Below, in pieces: positions 37,586-52,630 of a stretch of DNA of 64,000 nucleotides. How positions within the stretch are numbered: the stretch's first letter is position 1; every line of letters begins with the position of its first letter. This stretch comes from an uncultured Solirubrobacterales bacterium. GTDB taxonomy: Bacteria > Actinomycetota > Thermoleophilia > Solirubrobacterales > 70-9. The position numbers were made by a program, and so were the translations under genes. The stretch lies in the NCBI GenBank assembly GCA_963727985.1, contig CAVSIL010000009.1, forward strand, positions 39,670-103,669, given 5' to 3'. The notes under the pieces were generated by a model. The model did no database searches and was not told the DNA's origin. It saw nothing but the letters and a program-made list of their open reading frames with translations.

Positions 37586-39938
<2,353 letters not shown>

Positions 39939-39946
<8 letters not shown>

Positions 39947-40340
39947 TGCTCTTGGTCGTGAACTTCGAGGGGCACTTCGTGATCAGGGTTTCCGGCTCGC
40001 CGACGAAGGTGCCGCCCTGGATGGCGCCGGTGAGGACGATCTCGCGGCCGCCGCGGAAGGGGTCCGGCACGGTGCCGGTGTAGGTGACCGGCAGGGCCGG
40101 GCTCTTGCCGTCGCGGTCGACGACGCGGAAGGCGATGCCGGCACCCTCGTGGTGGACCGAGCCCTTGACGACCCTGCCGGTCATCTCGTAGCTGGTGCCG
40201 GGGGCGGCGGTGAGCAACTGCGAGGGCTCCTTCGCCTCGGTCGAGGCCGAGAACGAGGTGTAGATCAGGGCCACCGAGAGCAGCACGGCGACGCTGAGCG
40301 CGACCACGAGGCGGATCTTGCGCTTGCGCTGGGGGTCCAC
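39939..40340 (-). CDS. ccmE: Cytochrome c maturation heme chaperone CcmE, Cys-type variant
   Basis: N-terminal TM anchor and an OB-fold body (VPDPFRGGREIVLTG). KCPSKF occupies the position of the canonical AKHDENY heme-binding site. Confidence 0.85.
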
Positions 40341-41232: not shown

Positions 41233-42255
41233 CTAGGGGAGCAGGAGGCGGATCAGCCGCCAGTAGCCGCGGAGGATGAGGCGTGCGGGCAGTGAACGGG
41301 CGGCGGGAGAGATGAAGGGGGAGTCGAGGTCGGCCGTCAGCCAGGAGGCGAACTCGGCGGCGCTGACCGTGCGGGTGGCCTGGACCTGGCGGCGCTCGCG
41401 CAGCAGGCGTGGCAGCCAGCGCAGGAATTCCCAGTTGGCAGCGAGCTTCTGGCGTCCCCAGCCGCCGGAGGCGGAGACGGCGAGCAGCGCCAGCTCGGTC
41501 GCCAGCAGGGCCGGCGCCAGCAGGATCAGCAGCGAGGTCGGGTAGGCGCGGACGAGGAAGGCGAGGCGGTTGCGCTCGAGCCAGCGCCACTTGTGCTCGC
41601 GGGCGCCGAACTCGTAGTCGTGGTCGACCACGGCCGCGGGCTCGATCCCGAGCGTGCCCCCGCGCAGCCGCAGCCGCAGCGAGAGGTCGACGTCCTCGTG
41701 GTAGAGGAAGAACTCGCCGGGGAAACCGCCGACCTCGTTCCAGGTCCGCAGCGGGATCGCCAGGCAGGCGCCGGAGAGGACCGTGACCTCGCCGGCCGGC
41801 GGCGCCGCCGCGATCGGCTCGCCGTGCCCCCCGGCCCAGACGATGCCGGTGAAGTGGATCGGGTTGCCGGCGGAGTTGATCCGGGTCCCGCCGGCGTCGG
41901 CGACCAGGGCCTGCCAGGCGGCCCAGCCGCGACCCTGCAACCAGGGCCGCCGAATCGCCGCGCCGAAGCCGGGCAGCGGCGCCGCATCGGGGTTGAGGAT
42001 GACCAGCAACTCGCCGCCGGCCACCGCGGCGCCGGCGTTGCAGCCGGCCGCGAAGCCGAGGTTGGCGCCGGTCTCGACGACCTTCGCCGACGGCGCCAGT
42101 TCCCGCACCGCCGCGGCCGTGCCGTCGCCGGAGTCGTTGTCGACGACGATCAGCTCGTCGCCCTCCCCCAGCTCCGGCAGCAGTGCCGGCAGGGTCCTGG
42201 CCAGCTCGTCGCGGCTGTTCCAGGCGACGATGAGGACGGAGAGCGTCGGAGGCAC
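41233..42255 (-). CDS. Family 2 glycosyltransferase
   Basis: LSVLIVAWNSRDEL..VVDNDSGDGT..NLGFAAGCN..GACLAIP..FFLYHEDVDLSLR. Confidence 0.85.
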   Translation of the reverse strand: MPPTLSVLIVAWNSRDELARTLPALLPELGEGDELIVVDNDSGDGTAAAVRELAPSAKVVETGANLGFAAGCNAGAAVAGGELLVILNPDAAPLPGFGAAIRRPWLQGRGWAAWQALVADAGGTRINSAGNPIHFTGIVWAGGHGEPIAAAPPAGEVTVLSGACLAIPLRTWNEVGGFPGEFFLYHEDVDLSLRLRLRGGTLGIEPAAVVDHDYEFGAREHKWRWLERNRLAFLVRAYPTSLLILLAPALLATELALLAVSASGGWGRQKLAANWEFLRWLPRLLRERRQVQATRTVSAAEFASWLTADLDSPFISPAARSLPARLILRGYWRLIRLLLP

Positions 42256-42309: not shown

Positions 42310-45073
42310 CTACTTCTTCTTGTTCGACTTCTTGCACGAGCTGATGTTCAGCCTGTACTTGTTGTTCTTGACCTTCTTGCTGTTCTGGCCCTTGAGGTTC
42401 AAGACGGCCCTCTGCTGTTCCTTGCAGAGATTGCTCGAGTTGACCAGCAGGCTCTTCTTGCCCTTTTCCATGGTCAGGATGAACTTGCTCACGGCCACAT
42501 CGGGCACCGTCGGGAAGACGGTCTTGAGACCGCCTCGCTTGGAGCTGATGACGCCGCGCAACTGGACGTTGATCTGTCCGCGGAGGTCGGCTACCAGGTT
42601 CGGCAACTTGTCGTTGGACGAGACCAGGTAGACCGGACCCTTGAGGAGGTCGTCCAGCAACGGCGACTTCGCCTTTGCGTGCCCGTAGATCGCTGCCTTC
42701 GGGCAGCTCTGCGCCGCCAGCTGGACCCTCGTGCACACCGTCTTGATGTGACTCTGATCGAGGAACAGCGAGTGCGGCAACGTCAACGCCGCACGGCCGA
42801 GGTTCGCATCGCCTTTGCGTGTTTCCAGGATCGCCCGGATGCGCGGGTTCTTGGCCCGCTTGGGCGAACCGTAGAGCCGGGTGAACAGCTTCGGCTTGAA
42901 CTTGAGGCTGTTGCAGCCGGTAGCCGAGTACGGAGCGCTGATCGGGTAGGAGCTGAACGCGCCCGGATTGGCCGGATCGGCCCCCCCGCCGCTGACCGTG
43001 CCGCTGCTGCCTCCGGACGAGCAGTTCGTCGGGTTGAGCATGAAGTCCGCTCGATTTACGTCGACGTCGATCGAGCGAATGTCCAGCTTCACCCCTCCGA
43101 ACACGTTCGGGATCACATCCGACAGCGCCGTGATCTGGGCGGTTTCGGGGTTGACGTGGAGGGCGCTCCTGACGACCACGGTGCCGAGGTCGTAGGGGCC
43201 GGCGACTGCCGGCGTGATCACGACCGCTGAGAGCGGCGCCCCCTTGTAGGGACCCGCCAGATAAGCCTGGCCCCCGATCTCGAGCGGACCGCCGCCACTG
43301 CCGGCCGCGACTGTCGCGGTTCCGATCTGACTGGCAAACGGACAACTCGGGCTCAGCGCCTCAGTCGTCCCTCTGGCTGCACCCGCCGCGGCGATCGCCG
43401 CCTCCGAGCAGTATGGAATCCCGGCGAGTTTGCCGGTCAGGCCCGGGGGCAGGGTGACGTTGACGGCCTTGAGCTCCTGTTCGCCGTCACGGCGGGCGAA
43501 CTTGACGTGGAACGGGCTGTAGGCGCCCGCCTGACTCGTCGTCGAGTTCGCCTCGTACTTCGGTGCGAACTTCCGCGCCGCCAGGGTCGCCGGGCAGCTG
43601 CCGCCGCTCGGGTCGCTGGTCAGCGTGAAGGACGAGGTCGGTTCGTTTTCGTCCGGGTTCCCCGACCAGGGATCGAGCACCGTCTTGGTCTCGTGCGGCC
43701 CGCAGATCGGCGGGACTGGTCAGCGTCCCCTTCGGGCCACCGTCGAACTTCACCTTGAAGGAGCGGAACGTCGCCTGCGGGTTTTCCTCCACGACCGCGG
43801 TCAGCTGACCGGTTACCGGGTCCGGGAAGACGTGCCCGATCAAGGCGCACGTTGACCCCGTAGCGGTCCGACCCGACATGGAGGAATATCCGGAACTGTT
43901 CGCCGCTGGCCGGGTTGTCGCTCTTCGGTTCGCCGACGTAGACGGTGCCGAACAGCGAGTCCGCCGGGCAGCGAAGGCGTCTGCACCTCGACGGTGCCGA
44001 TCTTCGAAGCGGCGGGACAGGCGATCGGGTCGTTGGTGTGGTACGCGAACTGGGCATCCGTGCAGGCGACCAGGCCGTTGGCGGAAGCGGGGTTCAGGCC
44101 CGTCCCTTCCGGCAACGTAACCGTGGCCGTCTTCAGATACGAGTTGGCGATCGGCTTCGTTGGGATCGAACGGGATGCCGACGTTGACGGTCGTCGCCAG
44201 CGGCGAGTCGACCGCGTCTCCCTGCGGGGTGACGTTGATCGTCGGGTTGAACGGCACCAATTCGCATCCGCTGCCTTCGAACGGAGTATCAAAAGATTCT
44301 TCGGCGGAATGGCTTTCGACCGCATAGGGGGGGCCGTAGGAATCGACGAAGAGGTGCGAGGTCTGCGGGCCTTCGCAGTTACTCGGCAACGTCAGGTAGG
44401 TGCCGTTACCAGCCTGGCCGTTGAAGACGAGGCGGGAGCCGATGACCGGCGGGCTCAGCGGCGGATTCGGTGCGTGGACGTCGCTGATCGTAAAGGTCAC
44501 GTGCTGATCGACGGGATCCAGTGATCCGACGATGAAGACCGGCCCCGTCAGGGTCAGGAACGCGACCATCGAAGGCACTCCTTCGAAGGGCACCACGTTG
44601 TAGACCGGCAGCGCCACGCGTTTCTGTTCCACGGGCGTTGTGTTGGTCACGACCGTCTCGTAGTTGATCCCGACCTGAGCGCCCGGGCAACTGACCGGGG
44701 CCGTCGGCAACTGCGCGATGCTGCACTTGGGGGCCGCCTCGGGATTGACACTCAGGCCTTCCGGGGTTTCGACAACGATGTCTTTGACAAAGTCGTCAGG
44801 GAAACCACCCGTGCTATTGAGCGTGAAGTCGGTGATGGCAAAATTCGGGTGCCCTGCGGCCTGCGTATACCACTGGCTCGACGGGCTGCTTTCCGTGCAC
44901 GGATTCGGCGACGGCGTCAGGGGTGGTACGGCAGGACCCACTTCGGAATCGACGTTTTCTTTGCACGTCATCGTTTCCCAATTTTCGATGCCGAATGCAC
45001 CTTGAGCCGCCGGCGCCGCGAAAACAGCGCCGAAAGCCATCACTGCAGCTAAAACGATCAATCGCCTAGCCAT
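42310..45073 (-). CDS. Secreted ~920-aa four-module Cys-loop repeat protein, unrecognised family (paralog A; at least four frameshifts)
   Basis: GAGGAGG RBS. Signal peptide MARRLIVLAAVMAFGAVFAAPAAQG/AFG. Segments in ORFs 43487..45073, 43840..44325, 43620..44057 and 42310..43680 align to paralogs B and C. Tail ..CKKSNKKK. Confidence 0.7.
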
Positions 45074-45235
45074 TCAAATCCTCCTCGGTAACCCATTTGA
45101 GCGAACCACGCTTCCCCTGCGTAGCGCTCTGTCACTTCTCCCACCAAAGACAGTAGCGGGCGGGGCGCGTGGGTCAAGTGCGATTTGCGACAAATTGGCC
45201 AGCAGGTCCTGTCCAATAGGTACAAACCGGCACAG

Positions 45236-47946
45236 CTAGCGCTTCATTTTTCGGTGCGATTTCCTGTGGCATGGGGTCTTCAGCCGCGGCCGCTTGCCGA
45301 GCTTCTTCCCGTTCTGGGCCTTGAAGCGGACGATCGCCTTGATCCCCTTGCCCTTGCAGAGGTTCCTCGAGGCGACCAGGAGGCCGTGCTTGCCGCCGGG
45401 CAGGATCATCGTGAACTTCGAGACCGGCACGTCGGGCACGTGGCCAAAGGTGGTACGGATCCCGCCCTTGAAGCTGTCGATGCGGCCGACGAGGTCGATG
45501 CCGACCTGGCCCCGCAGGTGGGCGACCAGGTCCGGCAGCGGGTTGTTGGAGGAACGTAGGTAGACGGGGCCCCTCAGCGGTTTGCCCAGCAGCGGCGTGA
45601 CCGCCCGAGCGCGGCCGTAGCGCGAGCGCTTCGGGCAGTCGTTGGCGGCGAACTGGACCCGGGTGCAGATCTTCGACAGGCTGGCCTGGTCGAGGAAGAG
45701 CGCGTGCGGGAGGCCGACCGAAGCGCGGGCGATGTTGGCGTCGCCGCGCCGTGCCTTCAGCACCGCGCGCAGGCGCGGGTGCTTGGCCCGCCTGGTCGCT
45801 CCGGACAGCCGCAGGTTGAGCCTGGGCCGGAACTTCAGCCGGCGGCAGCCGTTCAGCTGGACCGGGTCGGAGACCGGGAAGGACGAGAACGCCGCCGGGT
45901 TGGTCGGGTCGGCGCCGCCGCCCTTCAGCGAGCCGGCCGTTACCTGCGGCTTGCAGTTGGTGCCGTTGAGGGTGAAGTTCTTCTTGTTGATCTTCACCGC
46001 GACCGAGCGGATGTCCAGTTTGGCGCCGCCGAAGACGTCCGGGATCGCGTTGGTCGCGGCGCGGATCCGGGCCGTCTCCGGATCGACGAAGAGCGGCACC
46101 CTGACCACGACCGTGCCGAGGTCGAAGGGCCCGGCGACCGCGGGCGTGACCACGACCAGCGACACCGGCGCACCCCCGTAGGGGCCGGCGAGGAAAGCCT
46201 TGCCGGCGATCGTCAGCGGGGAAGCCCCGGTCCCCGTGGCGATCGTCGCGACCCCGACCTGGCTCTTGTCGGGACAGCTGGCGTTGGCCCGCTCGGCCAC
46301 CCCCGCCCGCGCCGCCGCGGCGGCGATCGCGGCCGGCGGGCAGTAGGGGACGCCGGCCAGCTTCGCGGTCGCGCCCGGAGGCAGGACGATGTCAACGCCC
46401 TTCAGCTCCTGCTGCCCGTCGGTGCGGGTGAGGCCGGCGGCGAAGGGCGTGAAGGTGGCGGCTTTGGCGCTCTTCGGGCCGGCCTTGAAGCCGGGCGCGA
46501 AGGGCCGGGCCGCCATCGTCTTCGCGCAGGGGCCGCCGCCGGGCGCATTGCTCAGCGTCAGCGGGCCGGTCGGCGCCGCGGCGGCGTTCCCCGACCAGGG
46601 CGAGATCTGGGTCGTGGTCGTGTTGGCGCAGATCGGCGGGCTGCTCAGCGGCGCTTTGGCGCCGCCGGCGATCTGCAGCTGGAACGAGCTGAAGGCGACC
46701 TGCGGGTTGTCGGCGAAGACCGCGGTCAGCTGGCCCGTCTGGGGATTGGCCTTGACGTTCCCGATCAGCCGCACCGAGAGTCCGTAGCGGGGTGACTCGG
46801 CATCGACGAAGACGCGGTACTCGTTGCCGGAGGCCGGGTCGCGGCTGAGCTGCTGGCCGAGGAAGACCCTGGCCGGCAGCGAGTTGGCCGGCAGCACCGG
46901 GGTCTGGATCGCGGCGGTGCCGATCTGCGAGTTGGCGGGACAGGCGACCGGGTTCCTGGTCCCCTTGCCGAGCTGGGCGTCGCTGCAGAAATGCAGGTCC
47001 GGCGCCGAGGAGGGGTTGAGCCCGAGCCCGCGCGGCAGCGAGACGTTCGCGGTGCGCAGGTCGAGGAGTTCAGCGGCTGCAGGCCCTGCGGGACCTTGAG
47101 GTCGACGGTCACGCCGGACGGCGAGTCGGTCGTCGGCGATTCGGAGGCGCTGGAGACCGTCGGCGCGAACGGGACCGACTGGCAGCCGTCGCTGTTGGCC
47201 GGTGGCTTGGTCGTGTAGGTCTGGAACTGCCCCGGGTTCTCGTAGGAGTCGACCTTGAGGGTCGTGGTCGAGGGCGCGTTGCACTGGCTCCCCATGGTCA
47301 GGAAGGTGCCGCCCTTGGTCCCGTCGAAGACGAGCCGGTTCTCGACCAGCGGCAGCGTCGTCGGGATCTCGCTGATCGTGAAGCCCTCGTGGTAGTCGCC
47401 GTCCTAGGCGACATCGGCGACCAGGTAGACGTTGGCGACCGGGATCCCCGGCAGGCCGACGCTGAAGCCGAACAGCGCCGGCACCCCCTGCGGCGGGTCG
47501 AGGTTGTAGACGGGGAACGGCAGCGGCCCGACCGGGAGCCCGAGCACCTCGGAGGTCACTTCGCTGATCCCGACCTCGCTGCCCGCGCAGTTGAGGGTGT
47601 TGGCTTCGAAGCTCGCTTTCGCGCACTGCGGGACCGCCTGCGGATCGACGTTGAGGCCCTCCGGGAGGTCGACCCGGGCATCCCTGATCGCGCCTTCGGG
47701 AGCACCGCCGATCGGCGGCGGGCCGCCGGCGAGGTTCATCGCGAAGTCGGTGAGGCCGACCGGCGGGTGCCCGGCGGCCTGGGTGAAGAACTGCGCGCTT
47801 GGGCTCGAGTAGGTGCATTTCGGGGCGTCGGACTTGCAGGTGCCCGCTTCCCACTTGGAAACGCCGAAGGCGGCCTGCGCGGCCGGCGCGGCGATTGCCA
47901 GCGCGAGCGCGATCGCCGCGGCGAATGTCCCCAGTCGAACCCTCAT
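45236..47946 (-). CDS. Secreted ~900-aa four-module Cys-loop repeat protein, unrecognised family (paralog B; about three frameshifts in the first third)
   Basis: Signal peptide MRVRLGTFAAAIALALAIAAPAAQA/AFG. About 620 codons are intact (ORF 45236..47854). Tail ..CHRKSHRKMKR. Confidence 0.75.
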
Positions 47947-47958
47947 CGGTTCTACGCC

Positions 47959-50836
47959 CTACCCATTGCGAACGCTTCTCAACCGGCCCTTGCCGCGGCA
48001 GGCCGGAACTCGCAGCTTCAGCCGCTTCTTCTTCAGCCGCTTGCCGTTCTGGGCTTTGAAGTTCATGAACGAGAAGGAGCGGTGGGCGCAGAGGTCGCGC
48101 GAGTTGACCAGGAGACCGCGCTTGCCGCCCTTCATCGTCAGCACGAACTTGCTCACCGGCACATCGGGCACGGGGTAGAAGACGTTCTTGATCCGCCCCC
48201 TGGCGGAGCCGATGACGCCGTGCAGCTGCACGTTCACCTGGCCCCTGAGGTCGACCAGAAGGTCCGGCAGCGGATTGTCGGAGGAGACCAAGTACACGGG
48301 GCCGGCCAGTTCGTCGTCGAGCAGCGGCGTCCGCGCCCGCGCGTAGCCGTAGATCGCGGCCTTGGGACAGGCGTGCGCCGCCAGCTGGACCCGGGTGCAG
48401 ATGGTGCGGATGTGGGACTGGTCGAGGAACTGGGAGTGCGGCAGGGTGACGGCGGCGCGGCCGATGTTGGCGTCGCCGTCGCGGGCAACGAGCACGGCGC
48501 GGAATTTCGGGTGCTGGGCGCGCTTGGTGCTCTTCCTGCCCCCGTAGAGACGGGTGAACAGCTTCGGCCTGAAGCGAAGGGCGTCGCAGTCGCTGGTCTG
48601 GAACGGGGTGCTGACCGGGAAGGCGCTGAACGCGGCCGGGTTGGCCGGATCGGCGCCGCCGCCGTTGAGGACGCCGGCGCTGGCGAGCGGGCCGCAGCTG
48701 GTCGGGTTGAGGGTGAAGTCCCTGCGATCGATGTTGACGTCGACAGAGCGAATGCTGAGCTGGGCGCCGCCGAAGACGCTGGGGATCGGGTCCGAGACGG
48801 CGCGGATCTGCGCCGTCGCCGGGTCGACGAACAGCGCCACCCGCACCACGACCGTGCCCAGGTCAAAGGGCCCGGCCGTGGCGGGGGTGACGACTGCCAG
48901 GGAGAGAGGGGCCCCGTGGTAGGGGCCTGCGAGGAAGACCTTGCCGTCGGCTATGCGGAGCGGCGCCGGGCCGGTGCCGGCGGCGATCGCGGCGCTCCCG
49001 ACGAGGCTGCCGGCGGGACAGCTGGAACTGGCGCGCTGTTCGCCGCCGCCGCTCGCGGCCGCCGCGGCCAGGGCCGACTCCGGGCAGTAGGGAATGCCGG
49101 CGAGCTTGCCGGTCATCCCCGGCGCCAGGGTGACGTCGACGCCCTTCAGCTCCTGCTGCCCGTCGGTGCGGGCGATCCGCATCGTCAGCGGGCTGAAGGC
49201 GCCGGCCTTGGTGCCCTTCGGCCTCGCCTCGAAACCCGGGGCGAAGGGGCGTTCGGCGAGCGCCTTCGCGCAGGCGCCGCCACCGGGGGCATTGGTGAGG
49301 ACGATCGGCGCCGAGGGCGTGGCCGCCGGGTTGCCCGACCACGGGGTGAAGCTCGAGCCGGCCCGGGTCGCGCAGATCGGGGGACTGGAGAGGACCGCCC
49401 GCGGGCCGCCGTCGAAGTCGAGCTCGAAGGAGCTGAACGGCACCTGCGGGTTGTCGGCGACGGTCGTGGTCAGCTGCCCCGTCCGCGGGTCGGCGCTGAC
49501 GTTGCCGAGCAGCCGCACGTCGATCCCGTAACGGTCGGACTTGGCGTCGATGAAGATCCGGTACTCGTTGCCGGAGGCCGGGTCGCGGCTGAGCTGCTGG
49601 CCGGCGTAGACGTTGCCGGTCAGCGAGCCTTCGGGCAGCGGCGGCGATTCAATCGTGACCGTGCCCACTTTCGAGGCGGCCGGGCAGTCGGTTCCCGGCG
49701 CGCTGCTCTGCTTGCGGAACTGCGCGTCGCTGCAGGTCTGCAGCCCGGCGGCGGCGGAGGGGTTCAGTCCCATCCCGACCGGCAGCGCGACCCGCGCGGT
49801 GCGGGTGTCGGAACTGTCCTGGTTGCCGCCGCCGAGGATGTGCGGCACGTCGACGTCGACCCTGGCCCCGGCGGGCGAGTCGGTCGCGGCGGTACCCGGG
49901 TCGACCGCGAGCGACGGGTCGTAGGGGATCGTCCCGCACTCTTTGGGCGAGGTCCCGGGTGGGATCGGCGACTCGAAGCGCGGTTCGGCGTCGCGCGGGA
50001 ACTGATATCCGGCGCTTTCCTCTTCGGCGTAGGAGGCGGCCAGCAGGTAGGTGGAGTAGAGATGCCCCGACGGCCCCGGGAAGCCCTCGCCGAGACAGGT
50101 GCTGGGGGTGGTGATGAAGGTGCCGTCGCCGGCGGTGCCGTCGAAGACCAGGCGGTTTTTGAGGATGACCCCTTCCAGCCCCGGCAGTTCGAGCCGCTTT
50201 CGGGACGGCGATCGTGAAGCCCTCGTGGAAGTCGCCGGCCCAGGCGACGTCGGCTTTGAGGAAGATTTCCTTGCCGAGCAGTTCGAGGCCGAAGCGGGCG
50301 GGTTCGCCGTTGGGCGGTTTGATGTTGTAGACGGCGGTCGGCGGGATCGGGAGAGGGATGCCGATGATGGGGTCGGCCGCGGTGACGGTGGCGGTACCGA
50401 CCCGAGCCCCGACCGCGTCGCAAGAGCTGGCGGAGGCTTCGAAGGTGGCGAGGTCGCAGCGCGGGGTCGCTCCCGGGTTGACGCTGAGGCCGACCGGCAG
50501 GTCGACGCGAACGTCCTTCAGTTCCCCGACCGGTTTTTCGAGGGGCCCCGGTTCGCTGTGTTTGACGATGAACTGCGTGAAGCCGACGGGCGGATGGCCG
50601 GCTGCCTGTTCGAAGAACTGGGCGGGGGTGTCGACGCTGCAGGTCGGAGTGTCGACGGTGCAGGTTCCCGCTTGCCAGCCGGAGTCGACGGTCGGGTTCT
50701 GCGGATCGCTGGGGGCGATGATGCCGCCGGTGTTGGCAGCGGCGAGCGAGGCCACCGGCCCCAGGGCGAGCAAGCACAGCATCAGCCCAGTCACGGCTCC
50801 GATCCATCCCGGTCGTTGCATCCCTCTCCGTTGCAT
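47959..50836 (-). CDS. Secreted ~950-aa four-module Cys-loop repeat protein, unrecognised family (paralog C; frameshift(s) near 50200)
   Basis: GGAGG RBS. MQRRGMQRPGWIGAVTGLMLCLLALGPVASLAAA signal. 629 intact codons (ORF 47959..49848). Tail ..RLKLRVPACRGKGRLRSVRNG. The stop lies 12 nt from the start of B. Confidence 0.75.
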
Positions 50837-50924
50837 CCCAATCCCCCTCCGTCGATTCATTCTAGAGGAAGACCGTACCCGATTTTGATGACATGAATCA
50901 ATATTTCTTGGTAATCTCGCCGCC

Positions 50925-51269
50925 ATGAGCAAGCACAACGGCACCGGCACGCTCCCGGTCGATTGGGAGAACCTGGCGCGGGCAACAGCGCACCCGCTGC
51001 GGATCTCAGTCCTGGAAATCCTCGGCATGGACGGGGGTCGCACCCTCTCCCCCAACGAGCTCAGCCAGGAGCTCCAGATTCCCCTCAGCAACACCAACTA
51101 CCACGTAACCGAGCTGGCCAAAGCGGGGCTGATCGAGCTCGCCCGCCGACGTCAGGTGCGCGGCGCCACCGAGCACTTCTACCGGCTCGCGAGCGACAGG
51201 AAGAGCGCAACGGCGGACTCGCACCACGATCGATCTCGACCACAATCCGGCCTCGCAAGTTCGATATGA
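50925..51269 (+). CDS. ArsR-like winged-helix transcriptional regulator
   Basis: HPLRISVLEILG..LSPNELSQELQIPLSNTNYHVTELAKAGLIE. Divergent from the paralog cluster. Confidence 0.75.
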   Translation: MSKHNGTGTLPVDWENLARATAHPLRISVLEILGMDGGRTLSPNELSQELQIPLSNTNYHVTELAKAGLIELARRRQVRGATEHFYRLASDRKSATADSHHDRSRPQSGLASSI

Positions 51270-51278
51270 TGATTTCAT

Positions 51279-51515
51279 ATGAGCCGCCTGCTGTCCGTAT
51301 CCCTACCCGACGACCTCGCTGAGGAGACTGACGCTCTTGCCCAGAGCCTGGGCAAGACACGAAGTGAGGTCGTCCGCGACGCCCTGCGCCGTCAGGTCCG
51401 GGTTGAGCGCTTCGCCGACCTGCAGCGCTACGGGCGTGAGCGCGCCGAGGCCCTCGGGGTCGGACCCGATGACAGCGAGGCCTTGATTGACGAGATGCGC
51501 TCCGGGCGCGGCTGA
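51279..51515 (+). CDS. Ribbon-helix-helix (CopG-like) antitoxin
   Basis: LSVSLPDDLAEETDALAQSLGKTRSEVVRDALRR. The stop overlaps the PIN gene. Confidence 0.75.
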   Translation: MSRLLSVSLPDDLAEETDALAQSLGKTRSEVVRDALRRQVRVERFADLQRYGRERAEALGVGPDDSEALIDEMRSGRG

Positions 51516-51931
51516 TCCTGCGGGTCGCCTGCGACACCAACGTCCTCGTGTCGGCGTTCATCGCCGCCGGACCGCCCAGCCGCATCCTCGAGGAGACGAT
51601 CAATGCTCGTTTTGAGCTCGTCCTGCCCCAGCCAGTGATGGTCGAGCTGGAGCGGATCCTCACCGAGAAGCTGGGCTTCGAGCAGCAGCGCTGGAGAGAG
51701 GTCGAGGAGCTTCTCGTCGATCTTGCGGTCGAGCTGGCTCCAGCGCCTGAGGATCCGCCCGAGGGGGTGACGGGAGACCCAGATGACGACCTTATCCTTG
51801 CCTGTGCGATCCAGGCCGCGGTGGACGTTCTCGTATCCGGCGACCACCGGCACCTGCTCCCCGTTGGAGAGCATCGCGGCGTTCGAATCCTCACTCCGCA
51901 GGCGCTGCTCGCAGAGCTGCGAGGAAGATAG
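51512..51931 (+). CDS. PIN-domain toxin (VapC-like); start codon uncertain
   Basis: LRVACDTNVLVSAF..GDPDDDLILACA..VLVSGD. The frame is open from 51491 with no ATG, GTG or TTG before GTG 51548. CTG 51512 or an indel is possible. Confidence 0.7.
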   Translation: MILRVACDTNVLVSAFIAAGPPSRILEETINARFELVLPQPVMVELERILTEKLGFEQQRWREVEELLVDLAVELAPAPEDPPEGVTGDPDDDLILACAIQAAVDVLVSGDHRHLLPVGEHRGVRILTPQALLAELRGR

Positions 51932-51970
51932 GGCGACAGTGGTTGGGCTGCTCGCCGTCGGACGAGGAGA

Positions 51971-52043
51971 AGCGGACGACGGGGTTCGAACCCGCGACCT
52001 CGAGCTTGGGAAGCTCGCGCTCTACCAACTGAGCTACGTCCGC
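51971..52043 (-). tRNA. tRNA-Gly (anticodon CCC)
   Basis: Minus strand GCGGACGTAGCTCAGTTGGTAGAGCGCGAGCTTCCCAAGCTCGAGGTCGCGGGTTCGAACCCCGTCGTCCGCT folds as a canonical cloverleaf. Confidence 0.9.
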
Positions 52044-52108
52044 GCTGTCGGCTGATTCTATGACCGGCGGGCGGTTGCCGGGGGCCGCGATCTAACCTTC
52101 AGCGCCCC

Positions 52109-52630
52109 GTGAGTGCCCGCGCCGCCATCGCCGTCCTCGCCGTGCTGGCCATCGTCGGCCTGCTCACCTTCGGGCTGCTCAGCAAGGGCTCCTCCGGGAT
52201 CGCCGTCGGCGAGGTCGCTCCCGCCTCCCCCCTGCCCCAGCTCGAGGGCGGTGGCAGCGGCTCGCTGGCCGACTACCGGGGGCGCTGGGTGCTGGTCAAC
52301 TTCTGGGCCTCCTGGTGCATCCCCTGTCGCGAGGAGGCGCCGGCGCTGGAGGAGTTCCAGCGCCGCCACGGCGACGGCGGCTTCACCGTGCTCGGGATCG
52401 ACAGCCGCGACCTCAGCGGCGACGGCCGCGCCTTCGTGCGCCGCTTCGGGCTCACCTACCCGCAGCTGCGCGACGGCGACGGCGCCACCGCCCACGACTT
52501 CGGGACCACCGGCGTGCCGGAGAACTACCTGGTCGGCCCCGGGGGCAGGGTGCGGCTGCTGGTCCGCGGCCCGATCACCGCCGAGTACCTCGAAGAAGCG
52601 GTGGCGCCGCTGGTTTCCGAGCGGGCGCCG
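52109..52630 (+). CDS. ccmG: Thiol:disulfide oxidoreductase CcmG/TlpA/ResA family
   Basis: Membrane anchor, VNFWASWCIPCREE and GVPENYLV. The ORF runs on in frame into ccmH. Confidence 0.75.

Follow-up and report, generated by a model that had tools for sequence, protein, structure and literature searches.

Three tandem paralogous genes, called A, B and C here, lie on the minus strand of the window, the 64,000-nucleotide stretch of DNA from an uncultured Solirubrobacterales bacterium that we analyzed (Table 1). C is the first in the reading direction, followed by B and A. A GT2 glycosyltransferase gene begins 54 nt beyond A, and a divergently oriented regulator gene lies on the other side of C, across 88 nt of AT-rich DNA. 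The earlier note on this DNA had described the same arrangement, and its coordinates, shared strand, neighbors and both distances agreed with our remeasurement. Each paralog consists of a signal peptide, a short N-terminal segment with two cysteines, four homologous β-rich repeats of ~225 amino acids (D1–D4) and a basic tail. All three belong to a protein family that is very common, yet unnamed and without a domain model.

None of the three genes is open from end to end. Mapping the breaks by cross-paralog tblastn and by inspection of the three reading frames located six frameshifts and one in-frame TAG in total. At the position of the TAG in B, C has TGG (ADVA* versus ADVAW), and the paralogs and orthologs carry tryptophan there. 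When the breaks are skipped, stop-free proteins of the lengths listed in Table 1 are obtained, with pairwise identities of 49% for A and B, 49% for A and C, and 56% for B and C.

Table 1 Coordinates of the paralogs, their repeats and the other features of the window discussed in the text.
Feature	Position	Strand	Remarks
Paralog C	47959..50836	-	958 aa after removal of one extra base near 50194; signal peptide, two-Cys N-terminal segment, four repeats, basic tail
Repeat D1 of C	49915..50590 (approximate)	-	Most variable repeat
Repeat D2 of C	49252..49914 (approximate)	-	
Repeat D3 of C	48547..49251	-	235 aa; modeled singly
Repeat D4 of C with Lys/Arg-rich tail	47962..48573	-	Most conserved part
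Paralog B	45236..47946	-	903 aa; in-frame TAG at 47404-47406 and one frameshift near 47066-47067
Paralog A	42310..45073	-	919 aa; four single extra bases at 44152, 43962, 43841 and 43714
Conserved block in the regulator–C gap	50872..50915	-	From an alignment of 28 intergenic regions
GT2 glycosyltransferase	41233..42255	-	340 aa; PF00535, E 8e-16
Divergent winged-helix regulator, HTH_20, ArsR-like fold	50925..51269	+	PF12840, E 3.6e-11; protein without Cys
argS (arginyl-tRNA synthetase, essential)	53830-55475		2 frameshifts, within the first 52 codons
Metallophosphatase	55522-56262		3 frameshifts
Protein kinase	56897-58127		1 frameshift
tgt	58279-59494		1 frameshift
ccmH	52704-53098		At least 1 frameshift
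ccmF, ccmE	37586-40340		
ccmG-like thioredoxin, ccmH	52109-53141		
Region from regulator to ccmG	51270-52108		
PIN-like open reading frame	51548-51931		
tRNA-Gly(CCC)	51971-52043		
c-di-AMP (ydaO-type) riboswitch	29097-29242	-	
RNase P RNA gene	29328-29663	-	

An alignment of 38 intact orthologs of the C and A types (alignment A1) contains 17 invariant cysteines and one that is nearly invariant. A, B and C carry all 18, two in the N-terminal segment and four in each repeat. C has one additional cysteine, C21, which lies inside the signal peptide and is not conserved. Profile–profile comparison with hhalign matched D2 to D4 with a probability of 96.7% (E 3.5e-10), D1 to D2 with 90.9% (E 1.2e-6), D1 to D3 with 90.3% across 168 columns (E 1.5e-6), and D2 to D3 with 86% (E 4.8e-6). 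Each repeat starts with a β hairpin ending in LPxG, continues with a Cys-bounded helical loop and about eight further strands, and closes with a second pair of cysteines (PxxC ... C..F.P). The homology of the four segments indicates that the module LPxG...C...CPxxSxVG is the start of this larger ~225-residue repeat. The earlier note had described four copies of LPxG, Cys and CPxxSx(I/V)G per protein; their internal homology is real, but copy 1 of B and of C does not follow CPxxS. Similarly, the name Cys-loop repeat describes a loop that is indeed present but is only part of a unit holding two further conserved cysteines, and the motif AFG(I/V)xxWExxTC, said to follow the signal peptide in all three proteins, is replaced in C by ...VDSGWQAGTC.

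The signal peptides were called by eye, not by SignalP, from a hydrophobic h-region and an AxA-type cleavage site. At the opposite end, lysine and arginine account for 11–14 of the final 30 residues, and the conserved cysteine of the tail is the fourth cysteine of repeat 4. Both the basic tail and the lack of an LPXTG motif or hydrophobic anchor had been claimed before and are borne out. A search for LP.TG found no match in A, B or C, leaving the basic tail without a sortase signal, and the hydropathy scan found no anchor after the signal peptide, as the top 19-residue value past residue 45 is 1.46–1.82 with no peak at the C-terminus. Neither a C..CH heme-attachment motif nor a lipobox was found in the three proteins; a cysteine in the signal peptide occurs solely in C (C21), is missing from its ortholog P0006 and does not form a conserved column. 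The identity between A-type and C-type proteins climbs from the N-terminus to the C-terminus, with values of 0.33 for D1, 0.46 for D2, and 0.59 for both D3 and D4.

Six frameshifts and one in-frame TAG inside 8.5 kb could mean that A, B and C are decaying pseudogenes without a product in the source organism, an outcome that the earlier note had allowed for. The flanking genes argue otherwise. Compared with the proteins of a syntenic contig from a relative (L001), the flanks of the cluster carry at least eight comparable frameshifts in ~10 kb, a density similar to that in the paralogs, and two of these lie in the essential gene argS (Table 1). Moreover, each disruption in the paralogs is a single-base event, and conservation at the protein level continues past every shift. 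Intact orthologs are present in ~80 species, and the corrected proteins can be aligned with intact orthologs over their whole length. L001 itself has all three paralogs intact, with 951, 915 and 915 amino acids, and reconstructed A is equal in length to its intact ortholog P0121 (919 amino acids, 79% identity at 100% coverage). Gene decay is thus very improbable. Because argS and four other flanking genes are broken alike while the orthologs elsewhere are intact, the breaks in A, B and C are almost certainly consensus errors of the assembly, and the genes would be intact in the organism.

Since many of the related genomes were assembled from long-read metagenomes, we infer that the window derives from such an assembly as well. 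The whole window appears to be indel-prone, and an annotation based on open reading frames will be fragmented. A link between the indels and GATC methylation sites was considered and dropped, as GATC is too frequent (590 in 64 kb) for an association to mean anything. With apparent pseudogenes that are almost certainly assembly errors, the annotation of the source genome needs frameshift-aware gene calling.

The C type is the universally conserved copy. Its orthologs are intact, 935–978 amino acids long and up to 90% identical; that in L001 is the protein of 951 amino acids. The B ortholog in L001 (915 amino acids) is intact and 75–87% identical. A has a lower guanine-plus-cytosine (GC) content (0.638) than B (0.710) and C (0.706), as had been claimed. 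The A-type ortholog in L001 (15874-18621) is likewise GC-poor (0.631), so that the A type lies ~7 points under its neighbors in both genomes. Since it recurs, the low GC content is a trait of the A type rather than evidence of recent transfer. The A type is also the fastest-evolving copy, with 58–64% identity between the same two genomes compared with 86% for the C type.

Searches of Pfam and NCBIfam returned no match for the fragments of A, B and C (E up to 1), for the intact orthologs P0006 and P0121 in Pfam (E up to 0.1) or for P0006 in NCBIfam (E up to 0.001). DUF11 (PF01345/TIGR01451) had no hit in the fragments, P0006 or P0121 at those limits, and the weak DUF11 hits in relatives fall in N-terminal extensions outside the shared core. 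The wall-binding modules SLH, CWB2 and LysM were not found in the paralogs, Pfam giving no family for A, B, C, P0006 or P0121. Sequence profiles of the PDB, searched with the full length and with a single repeat, gave nothing significant, and tblastn found no match on plasmids. The family is therefore unrecognized and without an assignable domain, as the earlier note had stated.

The family is nonetheless large. Each word-indexed search found more than 2500 proteins past E 1e-3, and an exhaustive profile search collected 8529 representatives at 50% identity, 3221 of them below E 1e-30. Named members are called hypothetical except for one JGI entry labeled "invasion protein IalB" and another labeled "uncharacterized repeat protein". 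Where an organism is given for a member, it is an uncultured Solirubrobacterales or a metagenome-assembled genome of Actinomycetota. A possible reach of the family into Chloroflexota (L056) and Dormibacterota (L076) was dropped. Both are short contigs with the same regulator beside a C-type gene (L076 also with the GT2 and SDR genes), which makes mis-binning likelier.

Many relatives bear N-terminal extensions with Ig_2, DUF11, NHL or fn3/PhoD_N-like modules. Giant relatives of 2112–7161 amino acids contain 5–16 copies, chiefly of the D2–D4 unit. Two giants of 2112 and 3420 amino acids are encoded as an adjacent pair by mreBCD/PBP2 (L083 3670-20263), and the giant of 7161 amino acids is encoded inside a surface-polysaccharide cluster (L084 10001-31486).

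AlphaFold2 predicted a mostly β structure for P0006, the full-length ortholog of C, with a predicted local distance difference test (pLDDT) score of 72, a predicted template modeling (pTM) score of 0.69 and a pLDDT of ~90 in the D3 region. D3 of C modeled alone (pLDDT 73.7, pTM 0.68) is predicted to form ~12 β strands, with two short helices within the Cys loop. Foldseek matched the full-length model only to generic chains of Ig-like/FN3 domains, with a template modeling (TM) score of at most 0.17 in the PDB. These include a Saf pilus subunit chain, integrin alpha legs, alpha-2-macroglobulin macroglobulin (MG) domains, TEP, complement proteins, BbgIII and phage FN3 proteins, the best being the donor-strand-complemented Saf chain (5y9h, E 1e-7, TM 0.10–0.17). 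The search with the single repeat gave nothing below E 0.2; its nearest folds in the PDB are Ig-like pilins, adhesins or a hydrophobin, namely PsaA (E 0.33), AggA, BslA and UafA, all weak. Foldseek against BFVD returned generic FN3/Ig arrays. The profile and structure searches thus gave no confident hit to a known adhesin, S-layer or enzyme family; such a hit is what the earlier note had said would refute its proposal.

The comparison with known proteins shows what is familiar in the family and what is not. In common with known secreted all-β tandem-domain proteins, each repeat starts with a strand ending in D/T-LPxG(L), and family members become longer through additional Ig, fn3 or DUF11 modules and, in the giants, through more copies of the repeat. 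They differ in having no Pfam hit to DUF11, Cna_B, SdrD_B or Big in the repeats, and no LPXTG in A, B or C. The repeat is roughly double the size of an Ig-like domain and has four conserved cysteines. Chaperone-usher pilus subunits (Saf, PsaA, AggA) show the best structural likeness, yet a weak one (TM 0.10–0.42, sequence identity ~10%). The chaperone-usher pathway operates at the outer membrane of Gram-negative bacteria, and no chaperone or usher gene was found in the conserved neighborhood of the paralogs; no such family occurs among the called genes of L001, and the synteny table, for which L001 proteins were the only markers, gives this gene order for the other loci too.

Alpha-2-macroglobulin, TEP and complement MG proteins and thioester adhesins share long β-sandwich chains, which appear among the fold matches, but the TM scores are at most 0.09 (ECAM, TEP1, CD109, C5). 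Thioester proteins need an unpaired cysteine, whereas the 18 conserved cysteines of the paralogs form an even set. The distance between the two invariant N-terminal cysteines varies, in keeping with a disulfide, and none of the conserved cysteines would then be left over. The sequence TQAAGHP superficially recalls the glutamine-containing motifs of thioester proteins; no CGEQ motif was noticed on reading the paralog sequences, although no dedicated scan was run. The thioester reading was dropped on these grounds, as were the lipoprotein, sortase and cytochrome readings on the absence of the corresponding motifs. Like Gram-positive S-layer proteins, the paralogs look abundant, are secreted without a covalent anchor, stand beside a glycosyltransferase gene, as S-layer genes sometimes do, and have a conserved part that would face the cell. 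In contrast to S-layer proteins, they contain no SLH, CWB2 or other wall-binding module, and their sequences are more strongly conserved than is usual for such proteins. As secreted chains of β-sandwich-like repeats, the proteins are of a familiar kind; for the repeat itself, neither a relative in sequence or structure nor a domain model was found.

The absence of an anchor motif is also compatible with A, B and C being freely secreted, either as binding proteins or as enzymes of a new type that act, for example, on soil polymers. The active or metal-binding site would then be formed by the conserved histidine and aspartate residues of QAAGHP and GDxHEGFT, which lie in the N-terminal segment and D1. 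H76, D198 and H200 are invariant in alignment A1, TQAGxHP is retained in distant relatives, and fusions to NHL or PhoD_N-like modules occur in some relatives. However, no similarity to an enzyme family was found by sequence or fold, the distant relatives do not keep D198-x-H200 and show GDYG in its place, the most conserved repeats are D3 and D4 and not D1, and the multiplication of units in the giants is typical of structural or adhesive proteins. We consider free secretion unlikely, although it is the strongest of the alternatives.

The genomic context was surveyed in 80 species-level genomes, with the regulator counted over 79 loci and the downstream neighbor in view in 71. The divergent regulator, described previously as ArsR-like, belongs to HTH_20 (PF12840, 43.3 bits with a cut-off of 27) and scores below the cut-off of the ArsR/SmtB family NF033788 (30.1 versus 55 bits). 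In 77 of the 79 loci by script, and in 78 after inspection of L064, it precedes the C-type gene in divergent orientation. Three paralogs are present in 49 of the 71 loci, two in 4 and one in 18. A GT2 gene comes next downstream in all 49 three-copy loci, in three of the four two-copy loci and in 4/18 single-copy loci, counts that ignore the shared ancestry of the genomes. A GT2 gene is thus almost confined to loci with additional paralogs. These counts indicate a core unit of the regulator and the adjoining C-type gene, with B, A and GT2 traveling together.

The GT2 protein is a clear member of PF00535 (58.9 bits versus a cut-off of 23.3), and its NCBIfam matches are all below threshold, the best being MftF-like (69 bits versus 280). 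As its catalytic domain has no signal peptide, it is probably cytoplasmic. A search of public assemblies for an exact copy of the GT2 protein of the window gave none. The suggestion that the paralogs are possibly glycosylated therefore finds no support beyond the neighboring gene, whose product is a generic, probably cytoplasmic GT2 and which is missing from most single-copy loci.

Alignment of 28 intergenic regions between the regulator and C revealed a block conserved across species, with the consensus ATACCAAAAAnTATTGAyTCAnGTCATyAAAATCGGGTAnnnT. In the window it reads TTGATT (50901-50896), an 18-nt spacer and TACGGT (50877-50872), followed by a GGAGG ribosome-binding site. The block is promoter-like for C and may also be an operator for HTH_20, although a simple sigma-70 consensus scan did not call a promoter in it, and no inverted-repeat operator was found in the 88-nt gap. 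No intrinsic terminator was found on the coding strand inside the cluster. C, B, A and GT2 probably form one operon with GT2 as its last gene.

The association of three paralogs with GT2 invites the proposal that C, B and A are subunits of a heteromeric extracellular fiber or layer, for instance its base, shaft and tip, for which GT2 makes a glycan used in assembly or attachment. The fixed order of the paralogs in the 49 three-copy loci, always followed by GT2 as opposed to merely 4 of 18 single-copy loci, is consistent with this, as are the top full-length fold match to the Saf chain and the weak likeness of a single repeat to the pilins PsaA and AggA and the biofilm protein BslA. Nevertheless, the fold similarities are very low, no chaperone, usher, sortase or other assembly gene was found nearby, 18 of 71 loci get by with the C type alone, and the association with GT2 may merely reflect the shared ancestry of related genomes. 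A fiber built from the three paralogs seems doubtful to us, slightly more so than free secretion.

In nearly all loci the cluster sits between ccmH-ccmG on one side and an SDR gene followed by ccmE-ccmF on the other. Together with the 18 conserved cysteines per protein, this position could suggest that A, B and C act with the flanking genes for cytochrome c maturation and thiol redox chemistry. We find such a role hardly credible, because CXXCH is absent from A, B and C, and ccmE/F and ccmG/H form separate transcription units between which lie an oppositely oriented SDR gene, the regulator gene and variable inserts of up to ~6 kb. In addition, all the loci come from one order, so the position may be inherited synteny, and distant relatives of the paralogs are not beside ccm genes. 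They have other neighbors, among them a surface-polysaccharide cluster with Wzy_C, flippase, GT2, GT4, Bac_transf and LytR_C genes, or mreBCD and PBP2; elsewhere they form clusters of several large paralogs.

Cytochrome c maturation in most Actinobacteria relies on System II. The lineage studied here has System I (Ccm) genes (Table 1), and the set is split by the insertion of regulator, paralogs, GT2 and SDR in ~80 related genomes. Between the regulator and ccmG, the window contains a PIN-like open reading frame and a tRNA-Gly(CCC) gene. The length of this gap is variable, from ~90 nt in L001 to ~6 kb in other genomes. Away from the cluster, a cyclic di-AMP (c-di-AMP) riboswitch of the ydaO type and the RNase P RNA gene are adjacent on the minus strand.

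We favor the reading that A, B and C are exported, disulfide-stabilized multi-domain β proteins that are retained at the envelope and have a structural or adhesive function on the cell surface, and we put its probability at roughly 50%. C, B, A and GT2 would be transcribed from the conserved promoter that faces the divergent HTH_20 regulator, which would regulate the operon. Each product would be exported via its N-terminal signal peptide and fold outside the cytoplasm into four homologous β-rich domains. Two disulfides probably lock each domain and one more the N-terminal segment, giving nine in all; within a repeat, Cys1 is predicted to pair with Cys2 and Cys3 with Cys4. The conserved C-terminal half, consisting of D3, D4 and the Lys/Arg tail, may hold the protein non-covalently to anionic components of the wall or membrane, while the variable N-terminal half (D1–D2), where relatives add domains, would point outwards.

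A surface or envelope role, as suggested in the earlier note, is plausible because of the signal peptides, the Ig_2, DUF11, NHL and fn3 domains added in relatives, the giant multi-repeat relatives and the one relative in a surface-polysaccharide cluster. It also agrees with the fold matches to pilus subunits, integrin legs, alpha-2-macroglobulin MG domains and FN3 arrays. Several observations weigh against it. No recognized wall-binding module (SLH, LysM, LPXTG, lipobox) was found, and the fold matches are as generic as described above, both for the full length and for the single repeat. The C-type protein is 84–86% identical between genomes whose ArgS is 91% identical, which is slow for an exposed surface protein. 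The pTM of 0.69 hints at a compact, defined arrangement of the domains rather than a stalk of beads. The family consensus has an N-terminal RR, which leaves export by the twin-arginine translocation (Tat) route open, and Tat fits nine disulfides badly. Of the other explanations, we rank free secretion first, then a fiber of C, B and A, then pseudogenes and finally a role with the ccm genes.

The envelope reading can be extended to a more ambitious picture, which we regard as speculative and on balance improbable. The four-Cys repeat of ~225 residues might represent a new domain superfamily, and C, B and A might build an unseen envelope layer or fiber that is a hallmark of Solirubrobacterales, attached by a GT2 glycan and controlled by HTH_20.

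Solirubrobacterales, seldom cultured, count among the most common bacteria of soils, and our search of the literature on surface proteins of Solirubrobacterales and Thermoleophilia found nothing relevant. Nothing in the findings overturns an existing expectation; a domain model and a look in metaproteomes are worthwhile. Although its members number in the thousands and its core copy is nearly universal, syntenic and accompanied by a regulator of its own, the family lacks a name, a domain model and a structural relative. With a Pfam-style model for the repeat, several thousand proteins now called hypothetical could be annotated, including the giants of up to 7161 amino acids. If A, B and C are indeed envelope components, metaproteomics, cryo-electron tomography and cell-sorting antibodies could be directed at them in Solirubrobacterales.

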